A DNA stretch of 64,000 bases, from the sequence record NZ_CP024444.1. One strand, written 5' to 3'. Each line of letters begins with the position of its first letter. The first letter of the stretch is position 1. The stretch is from a plasmid. Position numbers: made by a program. Below, piece after piece: positions 15,001-24,000 of the stretch.

Positions 15001-18000
15001 TTGTTTGTCAGCACTTTGCTTGGTAATGAGTGTCATGTCGAGCCTTATTGAATTGGTCGTATAAATCTTATGGGCGGTGTTTTGGGTTAATAGCCAATCT
15101 ATCAAACCATTATAACGTTTTAACTTTTAATAAAAAGATATTTATTAAAGAAACGCCTAACTTTTGGCAATATTTTTTTGCTTACAATAGTTGCATTGTG
15201 CAGGCGTGGTGATATGATATTACAAAGTTAATACATTTTTTATTAACCCTTAATTTATAGCGAATTATCCCATGTCAAAAATTTCAAAAAGCGATCCAGC
15301 TAAACGCAGGCGTTGTATTAACATCAAAAAATCTGTCCATACTTTAAGATGTACAGATAGTCTTGACCGTCGTAAAGGTGTACTAGCTATCGATTACGAT
15401 TTTATCAGTCATGACCGCAAAATCCCTTTTACGGGACGCGCTAAATTATTATTAGACTATCTAAACCTACAAAGCCAAGTGCGTTTTATGTCGGCTTATG
15501 GCGCACAAGAAGTACACAAACTTGAGCTAAATGAGATAAACCAAATCCTTTTGGTCAAAGGTAAGACAGAAATATTTTACCATCTATTAAGGAAAATCAA
15601 ACCCTTAACGCCAGCTTCAAGCAACATGGTATTTGTTTAACCAAAGCTTTACTTACAGGGTAGGGCACGGATGATTTTATCCGTTCTTGCCGTAAAACCA
15701 CCGACTTTAGGCGGTGGATATAAGGCAATCAACACGACGCATAATGACGTATAGCCAACCTAGCATCTTGAAACGGTGAACATAACTTGCCATATTAACC
15801 CTATGAAAACACTCAAGCTACGCATACGAGATAAACACGCAGACCAATTAAACCGCCTAAGCGGTTCGGTCAATTTCGTGTGGAATTATGTCAATGATTT
15901 GAGTTACAGACACCTACAAAAAACTGGCAAATTCTTTAGTGCCTATGACTTAAACGAATATACCAAAGGTAGCGGTGAGTTACTGGGCTTGCACTCACAA
16001 ACTATTCAAGCTATCAGCGAAACCCACGCCAAATCGCGTCGCCAATCCAAAAAAGCTAAATTGTCATGGCGAACCAACAACCCAAAATCAAAGCGTAAAA
16101 ACTTAGGTTGGCTACCATTCAAACAATCCGCCATTAAGCACATTGCCACACACCAAACTGGTAAAAAGGGCTTAAAATCTACCTTACAACTATCTTTAGC
16201 CAAAGGGCAAAAGCTAACCATCGACCTATGGGACAGCTACAATCTTAGCTTATATCAAATTAACACCCTTGAGGTCGTCCAAGACAGCCGTAATCGTTGG
16301 TATGCCTGTATCACGGTTAAAGACTATCCCAAACAATCATGTGGTACCGGAAGCGTAGGCATAGATTTAGGTCTTAAAGAATCGGCTGCCACCTCAAACG
16401 GTGATAAACTCACCATCAAGCAAACGCTTAAATATGCCAAAGCGTTAGCCACCGCCCAACGTGCCAAAAACAAACAGCGTGTCAAAGCGATCCATGCCAA
16501 AATCAAAAACACACGCCAAGACTTAATTCACAAATTCACCACCCAATTAGTCAAGGATAATGCCTTAATCGTGGTCGGTGATATTAAAACAACCCAATTT
16601 AACAGTAAAAAAGGCAAACTAGCCAAATCGGTGTACGATGCAGGTTGGTTTGAACTCAAACGACAACTGACTTATAAATGCGAGAACGCAGGTTGCCGTT
16701 TTGAAATCGTGAATGAGAAATACACTACCCAGCAATGTTCGTGTTGCGGTGACATCACCGACAACAGTCCGAAAGGTAGGACGTCGCTTGGAATAAGGGA
16801 ATGGACTTGTGCTTCGTGTGGCACATGGCATGATAGAGATATCAATGCCGCTAAGAACATTCTTGCGGTCGGGCTTGACCGTCTTGTAGAAGGAATCCCT
16901 GAACGATAGGGAGGGGAGGAAGTCAATCATCTGTGCGGCCAGTTTTACAGTTTTTTGGGACGATTAATCTCAAAACCCAAGCCGTTTTTCATCAAGTTTA
17001 AACTTTCTTCGTGAAGTAGGTAAATCGCATCACTCATTTGGGTTTCAAGTGCTGGGGTGATATCCAAGCATATCGTCATCTGTCTTGCATTGGGTTTAAT
17101 ATCCTCAAAAGCCTTAATTTGAGCATCCAGCATCACTAAAGCGGTTTTGATCGCCTCTATTCTTTCGCCCGTCACACCGTCTTTAATTAAAAAACGTATA
17201 TAGTCAATCAATGCAATTTTTAACCGTCGTATAGATCGGCTTTGTTCAAAGACATCGTCGATGTCATTTAAGTCACAAACATGGCAAAAAGCGACCTGTG
17301 TTTCTATAGGTACGCCACCAAGCTTTTGACTAATATGTCTATTCCACGCCCCAATTTGTTCAGCACCCTCTAATGCTTGATTTCTAAATAATTCAAGCCA
17401 TGCTTTGCTATATTGCATAGCTGCTACTACATCAAATAAATTTACACCATGCGCCATTTCATCACCTGTTAAGTTTGACCTAGTTTGTTAGGATATTGCT
17501 ATGCTGAATTTTGTTAAGATTTAATGTGTCCAATGTCTGCTTGTCACAAGTGATATCAGATAGCGAGAAAACTTCGATATTGGCTTGCTTGAAAGTTGAG
17601 TCAAGTAAATGACCTTTGGTAAATTCAACCCTTTCTAGGTCACTACCTGTGAAGTACAGTCTATTCATTTGGCAGTGGAAAAATGCTGTATCAAGCACAG
17701 ATGCACTGCCAAAATTACAATCATACATAAGGCTAAAATTTAATTGGCTTTCTTTGATAACCGAACCAACAAAGCTACTTTGTTTTAAATTACCGCTATT
17801 GATTTGGGAATTTTTAAATTTGATACCCAATGCGTCGCTAAACACCAAGTTAAAGTTGTCTAGGCGGCAGTGGTCAAATAAGCTCTTGGTTAAATCACAG
17901 CCCGTCATGCGTAAATCCCTCATGGTTAAACGGTTAAACTTATTCCCTAGAAGACCGCAATGGTCAAATACGATGCCGTGGCATTCTGAATGACGAAACT

Positions 18001-21000: not shown

Positions 21001-24000
21001 GTTTTTATCACGCCATTTTTCAGATGTCGCTACGCTGATTGCCACCACGCAGTTATCATCTGAACCAAAAACCTTTGGGTCCATACCAACGGCACCCATT
21101 AAATTTACTTTATTCTTCATACTAGCCTCTTGTTCGCTAAAAATTAATTGGCAAGGCTAGTACAATCTAGCCAGCCGACGGGTAATTACACCAAGTCATT
21201 AAACCATCTTTAAAGTCGCTACGATACCACCACGTCTTGTTGTTATCAAATACTTGTTGGCCTACTGCACCATATACAGGTTCCGTCCAACAGTGCTCAA
21301 GATTATTGCGAATGCGTGGACTACGATTAGCAACAGGTTGTTCAAGAGCTGCATACCCAACATGGTTAATCGAGATAAACAGCTTGGCATCATTTTGCGC
21401 CTCCATGATTTTAGCCAGCGCATCCTGCCCCTCAATCTGATTTAGACTTTCACTGGCATCGTACAAATAAGCGGCTTGTGGGGCAGGCGTGTTGTTAAAG
21501 ACACCAATTTCGCGTGAGATTACCTCGCCACCGCACAGGTGTTTCACTTCCTGCGTTTGTAGGTACTCATAAAGTGCACGGTTATCACTACCTTGTAGTA
21601 GCAAAACCAAAGTGATGGTTGCACCAAACTCGGTATCTTTGAGTGAATACAAGCGTTTATTTACTTTTCCGGTCAAACCATCTTTTGGTAAGAAATCGCC
21701 ATTGTATTTCACATCGGTTAGACCGATTGAAAAGCGAATAGATTGACCAATGCTTTTTTCGATATTGGCGACATAGGTACCAAGGCTTGTAATGTTAGGA
21801 TGTCCAACACCCACAAAGCCACTTAAGATACTGGCGTTTTCAATAACCAGGCGCACACCAATCCCAGTAAATAAAGCCTGTGGGTCGTTTTCGATGAATT
21901 TATCAATACTCTTAGCCAGCACAGACACACTGCCATGCTGTTCCACCATCAATTCAGTATAGCGAAAATTGTCACGCGGATTTTTGCAAAGCGTGAGCAA
22001 GCGTGTGTGATAGTAGCCATGTTCCCGATACTCTTTGGTGCGCTCAAAAATCTCACTTAGCAACCCAAGTGACTCAAGCGAGCTGATTGAGTAATACGAA
22101 AATGGCTGCTCGCCAGCAACAGGTTTGCTGTTTATAGGTATGATTGATTGACGCGTATTGCGGTAAAACTCTGTTGGGATGAAACGCCGTTGCTCATTGG
22201 TTTCATTGGCGACAAATGCCTCGTCCACCCAACGTTCAAAATCATGAATATTTTCATCGCGTGGCACCCAAGCCCAATAACGACGCTCAATATTGGTAGT
22301 GGCGGATGTCACATAATGATTAGGGATATTGCCAATCGGTTTTGCACATAAAGGCATTTGTGGTGAGTTTGGGTCAATGAGTTGTTGGGCATGAGTGACT
22401 AACAAAAGGGTACTCCGTTGAAATTATGAGTCATGTGATTTTCCCTTGCCAATATAGACTTTCCAAGTTTCGTTGGTGGCTAAGGCATCGGTATAGCCGT
22501 CCTTGCGTGGGATGCGTTTTTTAACGTGTTTGGTATTATCAACAAACTGAAAGTCATTGACGTCATGTGGTGCAAAAATAATACCGTTACTGTAAAAATG
22601 AGTGCTAATGTACTCATTATTAATCTTTTGTTTACTATTGTCGAATAAATAAATTCGAGCACGTAAATCTACAAACTCACGATGACAGACCAGTCGACCA
22701 TCCGGATGGTTTTTGAAAAAATCTTCAAGCCTATGGACATCGCGTAAATCAAATTCACCACAGCAATTTAATACCGCACCGACGCTACCAAAAGAGCGTG
22801 AGTCCTTTGCTTTGTTTTTGTAAACCGCAATCTTTTTCACGTTAAAGAAAAAATGGGGCAGACCTAAGTGGGCTGGCAAGGTAGATTTGCTATTGATGGT
22901 GCTTGCTTCAGGGTACTGTTTGAATGCTAAATCCAAGGCTGGCTTAAACAACCGCTGGTAAGCCTTAACATCTTCAAAATCACTTCCCCATATTGGCAAG
23001 TCTTTACTTAATAGCACCAAATTATCACTTTCTTTGGGCGGATAATGCTCGTGCGTAAGCTCGCTGGCCAAAGCTATTAAACTTTCCAGTTCTTTTTTGT
23101 CTTTTTTTACAGGAACCGTGGGTTTCTTAAGGGTCATGGTAAAATAAATATAAGTATATTAATATGATTTAATAGGCATTATATAATAAAAATACAAACT
23201 ATTGGCAAGAAATCAAACTATATACAATTGATACTATCTATATACAATTGATACTATTTTTAGTATCTTTCAATTAACAATATGAATTTTAATCAAGTAG
23301 AAGGTGATTATGTCGAACATGCCAGCCACAATTGAGTCAAGCAATCCCGTTGTAGATGATGGTGTCGAGTATTTTGAAAACGGCTGTCTATGCTATCTTT
23401 CAGGCAAAATTTCAAAAGGCGATAGCTTTGAGTATTATTATGACAATTGTACCTGTACTCGCCACCCTGAAAGTGCCAATAGACTCTGTTGGGATAAAGA
23501 TAAACACGCTAGACAAGCTGCGCTTGAAATCATCAAAAAGCAGCATTCTCACTGGTTTGATTAAACAGCTGTTGTTTTATACAACATTAGTCACGCTCTT
23601 CTAAGTTATCTTCAGCGTGCATGTTTACAAATATCGGGGGCAAAAACGTTAGTTTGAATTGCTTGCGCCCTTCACCGTATCGGTAGCCATGCCAATGCGC
23701 TTGTCTGACATGGGGCTGCATCGTCACGCCAGTCGGCATGCCTTTCGACTCTTGTGCCTTAAACGCACGAATTTGCCCACCAAGCCGTCGCCCGATAAAA
23801 AACTTGGTTGGTTCGTTGGGTGCGATAAAACGCTTGGTTTTCGGGTGAATTGGCGGTAAATGAGAGAGCGACGCGATATCCACCTCGTTTAATGAACTAT
23901 CTTCAATTTGTGGACGTTCAACGCATAATAGTAATAATGCCGATAAGAAAAGTCGTGAGTTGTTTAAATGCATGTCCCATATTTCAGGGGTGATGTGTTG

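Follow-up and report, generated by a model that had tools for sequence, protein, structure and literature searches.

We analyzed a 64,000-nucleotide window of a plasmid (record NZ_CP024444.1) in which ten ORFs between positions 23137 and 16945 all lie on the minus strand. This arrangement had been proposed in a preliminary description of the DNA, and it agrees with our ORF calls, with the annotation of all ten ORFs in the near-identical plasmid pMOXF1 (99.8% identical to the block), and with the gene order kept in related contigs L004 to L011. The block is present in at least eight further contigs besides pMOXF1, and its order and reading frames are conserved across at least nine independent contigs. 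It belongs to the conserved backbone of a Moraxella osloensis megaplasmid with a Dot/Icm-type secretion system (T4BSS), and the earlier report of such a system elsewhere in the window is confirmed by DotI/IcmL and DotH/IcmK homologues at 58303-60472. Insertions interrupt the block among these relatives: pMOXF1 has one of 24 kb, and the window contains an IS.

Position 23137 is not the start of the run, because co-oriented genes for an AcrVA2-like protein and a Rep_3 protein lie directly upstream (23587-26175). The Rep_3 replication initiator gene (24676..26175, minus strand; Pfam Rep3_N 2.8e-9, Rep3_C 1.1e-13) forms the upstream boundary of the block. Beyond it are iterons at 26199..26453, consisting of 21-22-bp repeats with one copy inverted (repeat families D1/D4, inverted pairs I1-I4), which we presume to be oriV. 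Downstream of the cluster, co-oriented backbone genes extend as far as 9336, and a gene containing an MmeI-family methyltransferase lies on this side of the block. Fic and HEAT genes are found near the lower half of the cluster.

Directly 3' of rep, and outside the coordinates given previously, is a gene (23587..24672, minus strand) for a 361-aa protein of the AcrVA2/FinQ family, an anti-CRISPR homologue found by phmmer, Pfam, and PHROG searches. It lies 1.2 kb upstream of the 412-aa gene described below. Its product matches AcrVA2 in the PDB (7ci1_A; phmmer E = 1.8e-24), carries a precomputed assignment to Pfam PF26125 (AcrVA2-like), matches phrog_6160 at 5e-35, and retains the PH(V/I)R..HWHGY motif. 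The alignment to AcrVA2/FinQ spans ~265 residues, and the H-x-R-x-x-H residues required for the activity of those proteins are conserved in it (10.1101/2022.11.29.518452; PDB 7ci1), whereas the N-terminal (target-recognition) part diverges. Like FinQ, the protein is plasmid-borne.

A divergent ORF on the plus strand (23304..23564) encodes a Cys-rich protein of 86 aa (81-86 aa in L004-L011), possibly a regulator, for which family searches, including PADLOC-type models, gave no match. Between this ORF and the cluster is a divergent control region (23138..23303) that is AT-rich and repeat-rich as described earlier, with 81% A+T and two perfect tandem 20-bp direct repeats at 23218-23257 (D8). It is presumably the promoter/operator of an operon comprising the 237-aa and 412-aa genes, and its single-stranded fold is no better than those of shuffled sequences (z = -0.02). 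The 237-aa protein (22424..23137, minus strand), encoded 18 bp upstream of the 412-aa gene, was said to have no recognizable motif, and Pfam, PHROG, NCBIfam, PADLOC, and PDB searches were indeed all blank. Its sole homologues are 44% identical, one of them adjoining the start of a T4BSS in contig L003, and the gene is not linked to the 412-aa family at other loci.

The 412-aa protein (21167..22405, minus strand) had also been considered motif-less. Instead, it is an orphan, miniature homologue of type I-F3-like Cas8/Cas5 fusions and of Cas5f. The protein alone matches the PADLOC models Cas85f (9.8e-5) and Cas5f (1.2e-4), and it has 64 remote full-length homologues. Pfam Cas_Csy2 is matched by 43 of 56 family members, and a family profile matches the Cas8/5 chain 6pig_G in the PDB with E = 1.6e-26. 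The AF2 model (pLDDT 90.1, pTM 0.91) has 6vbw_A as its best Foldseek match (E = 3.3e-16, TM 0.68), and the 33 matches scoring E < 0.001 all come from type I-F Cascade entries (Cas8/5, Cas5f/Csy2, or Cas8f-HNH chains). As modeled, the protein keeps the N-terminal part of Cas8 and the whole Cas5 fold, and the Cas8 helical bundle is absent from it and from its family. The family is sparse, with ~400-aa members that are 23-32% identical to one another, and the protein in the window is a divergent member in which the family motif G.PAITAIGG.VH..ER reads GHPNITSLGTYVANIEK. Nevertheless, full-length reading frames, motifs conserved at such low identity, and a confidently predicted fold argue for purifying selection on the family.

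The best match in both sequence and structure is the type I-F3 Cas8/Cas5 of the V. cholerae Tn6677 TniQ-Cascade (PDB 6pig, 6vbw, 6lnb), which has the same fused order. Relative to VchCas8/5, the 412-aa protein is ~230 aa shorter, with a trimmed N-terminus and no match to residues ~271-365, and, unlike in Tn7-like CASTs, cas7, cas6, tniQ, tnsABC, and an array are not nearby. Transposon-encoded I-F3 Cas8/Cas5 fusions operate without Cas2/3. Since these are the closest structural relatives, loss of the bundle need not mean that the protein is “nuclease-blind.” In type I-F1 systems, the helical bundle of Cas8f bears the Cas2/3 recruitment helix (10.1101/453720).

The following gene (20617..21120, minus strand) encodes a 167-aa plasmid SSB (Pfam SSB 7.5e-23; TIGR00621 2e-32). 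Its identity was correctly recognized before, but the DIPF sequence is not the C-terminal tip, which lies 11 residues further on. On the 3' side of ssb is a terminator-like hairpin with a T-run (20573..20594, minus strand), and the 68-aa gene beyond it is preceded by a separate promoter-operator cassette (20281..20429, minus strand). Therefore, the cluster is not a single transcription unit. An imperfect direct repeat of ~116 bp (20413-20645; D3/D5) encloses the hairpin. Some relatives lack this repeat, one copy being missing in L004 and L005.

The cassette is a plasmid-wide repeat, recognized by nhmmer, promoter scanning, and ssDNA folding, with ~26 copies in pMOXF1 and 3 in the window. It matches a profile of 26 pMOXF1 cassettes with E = 1.7e-5 (nhmmer) and contains a -35 TTTACA surrounded by an inverted repeat, a -10 TAGAAT, and the UTR hairpin GAGATAGGCTC. 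The promoter scan places its hit at 20390-20362 (10/12), and the ssDNA fold has z-scores of -3.4 to -4.1. Because the short inverted repeat has the -35 in its loop, the cassette looks like an operator. It drives the 68-aa gene and probably those further downstream. Copies are also located 5' of the HEAT gene and of a 135-aa gene that immediately follows the Fic gene. In 1997, Delver and Belogurov reportedly described a regulon of CUP (conserved upstream) repeats within the leading region of IncN plasmid pKM101. The cassette resembles these as a long, conserved, promoter-containing element repeated before many co-oriented establishment genes, a likeness of layout rather than of compared sequences.

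The lower half of the cluster encodes seven proteins, all from the minus strand. A 68-aa protein with 4 Cys (20043..20249; RBS AAGGGGA) has the same length in all relatives and found no family in a Pfam-type search. The conserved 73-aa protein with two hydrophobic segments (19804..20025) has no family above threshold in curated family sets, and searches with the conserved 207-aa protein (19139..19762) yielded no significant family. The coiled-coil-like 63-aa ORF (18835..19026) is real as previously called, but its form is specific to the window. A perfect 73-bp tandem duplication (18797-18942; D2) changes its last 11 codons, and removing the duplication in silico restores the 65-aa form of the relatives. 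Family searches were without match for the next protein (18294..18593), annotated at 99 aa in pMOXF1 and L004-L011, and were blank for the 170-aa protein (16945..17457), also found in pMOXF1 and L004-L011. Between these two is the pentapeptide-repeat protein noted earlier, with a Qnr/MfpA-like beta-helix (17480..18229; Pentapeptide_4 1.4e-21), which is 249 rather than 251 aa long. Its match to the Qnr family (3.9e-12) is below the cut-off, and three of the four annotated pentapeptide-repeat genes in a second pMOXF1 array match it at 23-25% identity (tblastn). An IS200/IS605 TnpB insertion (15776-16909, plus strand) lies directly beyond the 170-aa gene. Thus, the ORFs are mostly domain-less as had been stated, in that two of the ten, SSB and the pentapeptide protein, are the only ones with a curated family, but the Cas8/5 homologue is an exception.

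Carriers of the Cas8/5-like family include 251 Acinetobacter conjugative plasmids as well as Pasteurella and Moraxella phages, and full-length members occur in Moraxella, Acinetobacter, Burkholderia, Pasteurella phages, and one viral contig of 68% G+C. Single copies were seen in six IMG/VR contigs and at two prophage edges. We found no cas7, cas6, cas3, tniQ, array, or solitary repeat near any member examined, no Cas Pfam matches within 10 kb on either side of the gene at eight loci, and no CRISPR array or I-F repeat in the window. Likewise, a RepAci6 plasmid carrying a member has 92 features, none of which is a cas gene. Instead, members have Acr/Aca homologues as neighbors and occupy prophage accessory regions, where tail/packaging genes adjoin them at the end of the prophage or genome. 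In Moraxella prophage L013, an AcrVA2-like gene is followed by a Cas8/5-like gene and then by one for an HTH protein of 95 aa, which has Aca3 as its best, albeit weak, PDB match (E = 0.004).

We favor the reading that the block is an anti-CRISPR and establishment module whose orphan Cas8/5 acts as a defective Cascade subunit, and we hold it with middling confidence. The AcrVA2/FinQ homologue, the divergent 86-aa gene, and the 237/412 operon would form an upstream anti-CRISPR locus. In a type I-F host, native Cas8f/Cas5f may face competition from the orphan for both the Cas7f backbone and the 5' handle of the crRNA. Cascade assembled with it would not bind targets productively or would not recruit Cas2/3, making the orphan a dominant-negative subunit. 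SSB would then shield or prime the incoming ssDNA. A copy of the plasmid-wide cassette drives the 68-aa gene and probably those after it, which suggests a common repressor of cassette genes and therefore their transient derepression upon entry into a repressor-free cell. We infer that the block may be induced zygotically in this manner.

There are precedents for such a mechanism. The Cas5 homologue AcrIB3 is built into a defective Cascade (10.1101/2023.06.24.545427), and 358 orphan viral cas genes have been reported in putative anti-defense loci (PMC13131331). Like the Listeria proteins AcrIB3 and AcrIB4 (homologues of Cas5 and the Cas8b-CTD; Katz et al., 10.1101/2023.06.24.545427), the 412-aa protein is a lone Cascade-subunit homologue carried by a mobile element near acr/aca genes that has diverged from bona fide Cas proteins, with a lost element that is the “hook” in AcrIB3 and the helical bundle here. 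It differs from them in being a much larger I-F/I-F3 Cas8-Cas5 fusion rather than I-B, with both tail subunits in one chain. Furthermore, its family is only 23-32% identical internally and has no close Cas parent, and the anti-CRISPR activity is here a predicted one. AcrIF3 is also Cas8f-related and a case of type I-F molecular mimicry, but it resembles the helical bundle only and binds Cas2/3, whereas the 412-aa protein is the complementary piece, everything but the bundle.

The preliminary description had tentatively placed the block in a conjugative leading region. Its anti-defense component is supported by the orphan Cas8/5, the AcrVA2/FinQ gene, and the Moraxella prophage pairing with an Aca3-like protein, whereas we consider it unlikely that the block lies beside oriT on the first-transferred side and is expressed from the incoming T-strand. 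The content is similar to that of leading-region islands on T4SS plasmids (Samuel et al. 2024, PMC11541004), with ssb, Acr and orphan Cas homologues, and a downstream methyltransferase-containing gene, all co-oriented. In the ancestral layout, only rep and iterons separate the block from the first T4BSS-side gene, and in L003 the first gene to point away from the T4BSS block is the homologue of the 237-aa protein. Among RepAci6 plasmids of Acinetobacter, the Cas8/5-like gene belongs to a unidirectional array pointing toward the T4CP-MobF operon, the orientation expected of T-strand-templated genes. However, T-strand orientation, Frpo-type ssDNA promoters, and a boundary at oriT would be hypothetical features of this block, and it abuts oriV. 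Neither a relaxase nor oriT was found in the window or pMOXF1, a Pfam search of the 27 larger pMOXF1 proteins found no relaxase, and MOB-suite calls pMOXF1 non-mobilizable. No Frpo-like element was found, given the shuffle-like fold of the control region and the operator-like -35 of the cassette. Genes on both pMOXF1 arms diverge from oriV, and so co-orientation may follow replication direction without any role for transfer. In addition, the array at 203-246 kb in pMOXF1 is a much more typical leading-region candidate, holding ArdC, another ssb, ~26 cassettes, and a second AcrVA2-like gene.

We regard as quite improbable that the orphan is a working effector subunit that joins Cas7/Cas6 and crRNAs encoded in trans, by the host or in another part of the element, for an RNA-guided function of use to the element, such as CAST-like targeting or CRISPRi-like silencing. 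Its complete predicted Cas8-N and Cas5 fold, its kinship with nuclease-independent I-F3 fusions, and the full-length state of a widely distributed family would suit this role, but the absence of tniQ, cas7, cas6, arrays, and solitary repeats near the members examined, together with their Acr/Aca neighbors, argues against it. An equally small chance is given to the lower half and the nearby Fic/HEAT genes being cassette-regulated effectors translocated by the T4BSS rather than an anti-defense array. Domains of the pentapeptide, Fic, and HEAT types resemble those of effectors, the protein with pentapeptide repeats weakly matches the PipB2 effector model, and cassettes precede the HEAT and 135-aa genes on a plasmid with a Dot/Icm-type system. 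However, the pMOXF1 array in which cassettes precede most genes also carries the DNA-entry and anti-defense functions listed above, and a Pfam search revealed no eukaryote-specific domains in the ten ORFs. Least probable of all is a heterogeneous set of backbone ORFans that share no role and whose common orientation follows replication, the Cas8/5-like gene being a decaying relic. Against this, order and frames are conserved, and members of the Cas8/5-like family are full-length, keep their motifs, and have a confident fold, even though no family could be detected for eight of the ten ORFs and insertions split the block.

Moraxella species carry type I-F systems that are targets of known Acrs (PMC6538845). 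By analogy with the subunit mimics described above, the 412-aa protein is a candidate type I-F anti-CRISPR, and, judged from its trimmed, stand-alone form and its AcrVA2-like neighbor, this orphan probably sabotages the CRISPR defense of recipient cells. The module beside the Rep_3 replicon would thereby serve both plasmid establishment and anti-defense.

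The 412-aa protein (21167-22405, minus strand), which the preliminary description had listed as having no recognisable motif, proved to be homologous to Cas8/5 and Cas5f. Default scans of curated libraries returned no match for this protein, and a word-indexed homology search, the family profile included, recovered only self-clusters. When 1.84 billion representatives were searched exhaustively with HMMER, 64 full-length homologues with 23-32% identity emerged. Among 56 aligned members, 43 match the Pfam family Cas_Csy2 (PF09614) and 5 match Cas_Csy1. When the family profile was compared with the PDB, the best match was the naturally fused Cas8/Cas5 of Vibrio cholerae (type I-F3 system of Tn6677; E=1.6e-26), followed by further Cas8/5, Cas5f, and Csy2 chains (Csy2, E=1.6e-8). 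The window sequence alone was matched by PADLOC to Cas85f (9.8e-5) and Cas5f (1.2e-4).

AlphaFold2 run with the family alignment produced a model with a pLDDT of 90.1 and a pTM of 0.91; the alignment was needed, as prediction from the single 412-aa sequence gave a pLDDT of 34. Type I-F3 Cas8/5 chains ranked first when this model was searched with Foldseek (6vbw_A, E=3.3e-16, TMq 0.68 and TMt 0.63), and all 33 matches with E <0.001 are type I-F Cascade chains (Cas8/5, Cas5f/Csy2, or Cas8f-HNH). A fold search of BFVD yielded one match, a 248-aa viral protein (F1D5V7, E=9e-9) that corresponds to the Cas5-like C-terminal portion of the model. The protein therefore resembles the type I-F Cas5f and Cas8-Cas5 fusion family in sequence, and its predicted fold comprises Cas8-N and Cas5.

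One domain of this family has been lost. Alignment to the 640-aa Vibrio protein pairs profile positions 73-160 with residues 189-270 and profile positions 149-388 with residues 366-624, and residues ~271-365 of VchCas8/5 thus have no counterpart among the homologues. We take this segment to be the Cas8 helical bundle. No alpha-helical bundle of the kind that serves Cas8 as an effector-recruitment domain was found in the 412-aa protein, whose modeled helices are short and interspersed only. In type I-F1 systems, the Cas2/3 nuclease is recruited by a helix within this bundle (10.1101/453720).

The genes for these proteins are orphans. No cas7, cas6, cas3, or tniQ gene and no array was found near any member examined, no Cas Pfam match occurs within +/-10 kb of eight Moraxella loci, and none of the 92 features of a complete RepAci6 plasmid carrying a member is a cas gene. 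Likewise, neither a CRISPR array nor a type I-F repeat-like unit nor an Rfam match was found in the window. The partner genes and array of a cis-encoded CRISPR-Cas effector module are thus absent from the surroundings of the gene.

Because of the high divergence of the full A1 alignment, locus scanning was based on a 12-member subset. Single Cas8/5-like copies occur amid small genes on six IMG/VR viral contigs. Close to one end of a prophage in a Moraxella metagenome-assembled genome, and likewise of the Pasteurella phage Pm86 genome, the gene comes right after that for a tail protein; in Azorhizophilus it is found beside prophage portal and terminase genes, adjoining chromosomal genes. A tblastn search with a phage member retrieved 256 plasmid records, 251 of them from Acinetobacter and 253 typed as conjugative; the gene is present on Burkholderia plasmids too, and in Pasteurella and Moraxella phages. 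The Acinetobacter baumannii plasmid that we inspected (NZ_CP082222.1; 77.5 kb, RepAci6-type, conjugative, MOBF/MPF_F) carries OXA-23. In this species, the family is distributed across the principal conjugative plasmids bearing OXA-23. In the inspected plasmid, the Cas8/5-like orphan (WP_001010504.1; 2212-3447 of locus L023; E=6e-83 to the family HMM) is located directly after parAB, where it heads a unidirectional array aimed at the T4CP-MobF operon. The product is annotated as a hypothetical protein in all annotated records inspected, which are those of the RepAci6 plasmid, phage Pm86, and the Moraxella osloensis plasmid pMOXF1.

A relative of an established anti-CRISPR protein is encoded nearby. 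The 361-aa gene (23587-24672, minus strand) between rep and the cluster specifies a homologue of AcrVA2 (PDB 7ci1_A, E=1.8e-24). AcrVA2 activity requires H286, R288, and H291, and the plasmid fertility inhibitor FinQ is a member of the same family (10.1101/2022.11.29.518452). The conserved C-terminal H-x-R-x-x-H is kept in the 361-aa protein (PHVRQAHWHGY aligned with PHIRRGHWHGY), which, judged by its sequence, belongs to the AcrVA2/FinQ family. In a Moraxella prophage (L013; Moraxella sp. MAG JAUMYZ010000013.1), an AcrVA2-like gene whose product is 35% identical to that of the window lies directly 5' of the Cas8/5-like gene, the end of which is overlapped by a 95-aa HTH gene. This acr-aca-like operon (8699-11420) occupies the prophage edge and adjoins the tail J gene. 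The arrangement has the AcrIB3-type placement of a Cas homologue outside cas loci, on a mobile element, and adjacent to acr and aca genes, although the best PDB match of the HTH protein, Aca3, is weak (E=0.004). Type I-F systems occur in Moraxella species, and known Acrs target them (PMC6538845). The 412-aa gene had been proposed as a best candidate for an anti-defence or defence function, and its Cas8/5 homology, its orphan status, and the AcrVA2 homologue nearby all support that choice. The anti-defence interpretation of the cluster is thereby supported and narrowed to one specific candidate.

The earlier observation of the cluster itself was largely correct. Ten ORFs do succeed one another on the minus strand from 23137 down to 16945, and all ten are annotated in pMOXF1 (248 kb), to which the window DNA is 99.8% identical. 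Their order is kept in at least eight independent assemblies (L004-L011). Family matches confirmed the SSB and the pentapeptide-repeat protein, the AT-rich repeat control region (23138-23303) is 81% A+T and contains two perfect 20-bp repeats in tandem, and DotI and DotH homologues bear out the presence of a type IVB secretion system (T4BSS) in the window. However, the co-oriented run extends beyond the cluster at both ends, and the ten genes do not form a single operon, since a terminator-like hairpin lies 3' of ssb and a separate promoter element 5' of the 68-aa gene. Direct scans of the ten ORFs against Pfam, PHROG, and NCBIfam found nothing apart from the SSB and pentapeptide matches, and the 68-, 73-, 207-, 63-, 99-, and 170-aa products received no family assignment from them.

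The 237-aa gene, separated by 18 bp from the downstream Cas8/5-like gene, was said to encode a protein without a recognisable motif, and we likewise found no structural or family match. Its remote homologues form two clusters only (44% identical), and a profile search of the PDB gave no match; in a compared contig (L003), one of these homologues leads the genes that diverge from a T4BSS block. The 63-aa coiled-coil ORF is present as described, but it is a window-specific variant created by a perfect 73-bp tandem duplication (18797-18942) that shifts the frame at its 3' end and is absent from pMOXF1 and the other contigs examined. An imperfect direct repeat of ~116 bp (20413-20645; 76-78% identity) duplicates the ssb 3' end and terminator, and it is polymorphic, since assemblies L004 and L005 are without one copy. 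The SSB has an OB-fold SSB domain and the reported DIPF motif, but this motif is not the C-terminal tip: because the 11 residues DLPFPGNENNE follow, DIPF has no free C-terminus. The protein (C-terminus at 20617-20670) ends in ...DSDIPFDLPFPGNENNE, with the canonical DIPF tip internal and a second D-L-P-F after it that may alter partner-protein binding.

By comparing pMOXF1 with metagenomic contigs, we inferred an ancestral order for the plasmid backbone. The T4BSS genes and a 551-aa gene lie on one strand, and the iterons and Rep_3 gene diverge from them. Rep_3 is followed by the 361-aa gene, an 86-aa gene in the opposite orientation, the 237-aa and 412-aa genes, and ssb, and then by seven more genes, Fic, and an MmeI-type restriction-modification gene. 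In this order, therefore, the block directly adjoins the replication origin. Insertions now separate ssb from the 412-aa gene in pMOXF1 (24 kb) and rep from the T4BSS in the window (27 kb). The window also has two IS200/IS605-type TnpB genes of 377 aa each (15776-16909 and 2412-3545), the former of which breaks the backbone directly 3' of the 170-aa gene. Downstream of the cluster and in its orientation (within 9336-13911) lie an MmeI-type (type IIL) restriction-modification gene with all five domains and a gene with Fic and KfrB domains, so that the anti-defence genes have a defence gene and a possible effector or toxin as neighbours. ParA-like and ParB/KorB genes lie within 101-1985, and a second Rep_3-type initiator (7768-9174) has its own repeats at ~6834-7500, so the plasmid is probably multi-replicon or a cointegrate. 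The 551-aa protein (53030-54685, plus strand) heads the T4BSS block, as it does in L003. Searches of Pfam and the PDB and a BLASTP comparison with an integrase gave nothing significant for it. By eye, tyrosine-recombinase-like boxes are visible (GLRPNEW ... TRHQ ... GHASVITADRHY), and possible identities of the protein are a resolvase, an integrase, and an atypical relaxase.

The promoter element 5' of the 68-aa gene is one copy of a repeated cassette. At 203-246 kb of pMOXF1 (CP040258.1), ~40 co-oriented genes are separated by spacers of ~300 bp (L015 44459-49001; L016 340-38179). At least 26 of these spacers terminate in a shared element of ~125 nt, with 80-90% conservation. The element is composed of an inverted repeat (sequence ACGNTWAAACCG; arms AACGCTAAAACCG / CGGTTAAAGCGTT) around the -35, a TATTAT -10, a short UTR hairpin, and a ribosome-binding site. 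Its profile identified three copies in the window, all on the minus strand and each 5' of a minus-strand gene: 5523-5595, upstream of a HEAT-repeat gene (4426-5496); 12609-12695, upstream of a 135-aa gene (12190-12597); and 20281-20429, in the spacer between ssb and the 68-aa gene. The last copy is predicted to form a longer hairpin, with a fold z of -4.1. With its short inverted repeat, a -35 inside the loop, and a -10 outside the stem, the cassette looks like an operator rather than a Frpo-type ssDNA promoter. An operator would imply a common repressor, and therefore transient derepression on entry is possible.

The cluster had also been proposed to be a conjugative leading region. Its co-oriented ssb and anti-defence content agree with this idea, whereas Frpo-type hairpins do not appear, and the reading as a whole is unproven. 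No Frpo/ssi-type ssDNA promoter hairpin with -35 and -10 in the stem was found. A Frpo promoter at 23138-23303 was rejected (fold of 23120-23320, z=-0.02), and a Frpo-type role for the cassette was judged unlikely from the positions of its -35 and -10. Pfam scans of 14 window ORFs around the block, the T4BSS genes, and 27 larger pMOXF1 proteins revealed no relaxase, although the same scans did find T4CP, DotM, DotI, DotH, ArdC, a UvrD-like helicase, and a YadA-like adhesin. Within this coverage, the suggested search for a relaxase and oriT located T4BSS components but neither of these two. A 1069-aa protein beside T4CP had no PDB match, and MOB-suite typed pMOXF1 as non-mobilizable.

The block borders the presumed oriV. 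In pMOXF1, genes are on the minus strand from rep at 71 kb through the record origin to ~190 kb and on the plus strand from 72 to 188 kb. They therefore run from oriV along both arms, and co-orientation may reflect the direction of replication. Furthermore, the pMOXF1 array at 203-246 kb encodes a complete ArdC and four pentapeptide-repeat proteins, along with a second SSB and a second AcrVA2-like protein. It is the more conventional candidate and has the look of this plasmid family's true leading or establishment region. The window cluster has gene types and the cassette in common with that array; no oriT having been located, we consider it doubtful that the block is a conjugative leading region. 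The label needs an oriT before use; it does not exclude the anti-defence reading of the block.

To the documented homology, fold, domain loss, orphan status, and neighbourhood of the 412-aa protein, we would add an inhibitory activity, which we infer from the precedent of AcrIB3. This Cas5 homologue displaces Cas5 and thereby renders type I-B Cascade defective (10.1101/2023.06.24.545427; PMC13131331). By analogy, the crRNA 5' handle and the Cas7f backbone would be contested between the orphan Cas8/5 and native Cas8f/Cas5f, and complexes formed with the orphan would either not engage targets productively or not recruit Cas2/3. In contrast to AcrIF3, which mimics the helical bundle only, the orphan Cas8/5 is the complement of that bundle. 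A further reading, which we regard as a long shot, is that the orphan mini-Cas8/5 re-tools the Cas7f/Cas6f-crRNA of the recipient into nuclease-blind, sequence-specific binders, such that anti-element spacers then shield the element or block I-F3 CAST homing. If this were true, one protein would turn CRISPR memory from immunity to protection.

Competition with native Cascade subunits, as proposed for the 412-aa protein, would place it among the Cas-derived anti-CRISPRs, a class recognised only recently. The characterised examples in an April 2026 review act against types I-B and VI-A (AcrIB3, AcrIB4, and AcrVIA2), and that review includes no Cas-homologue Acr from a type I-F Cascade subunit (PMC13131331). 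In the literature that we searched, we found no description of the bundle-less orphan Cas8/5 family as an anti-CRISPR. The candidate family would be the first Cas8/Cas5-derived one against type I-F and would join the Cas-homologue Acrs as a new member of their class, and an ORF of the window that had seemed domain-less is now a directly testable hypothesis. If active, the protein would provide a natural "Cascade minus recruitment domain" reagent, and it would help explain how Acinetobacter plasmids cross the I-F CRISPR barrier of their hosts.
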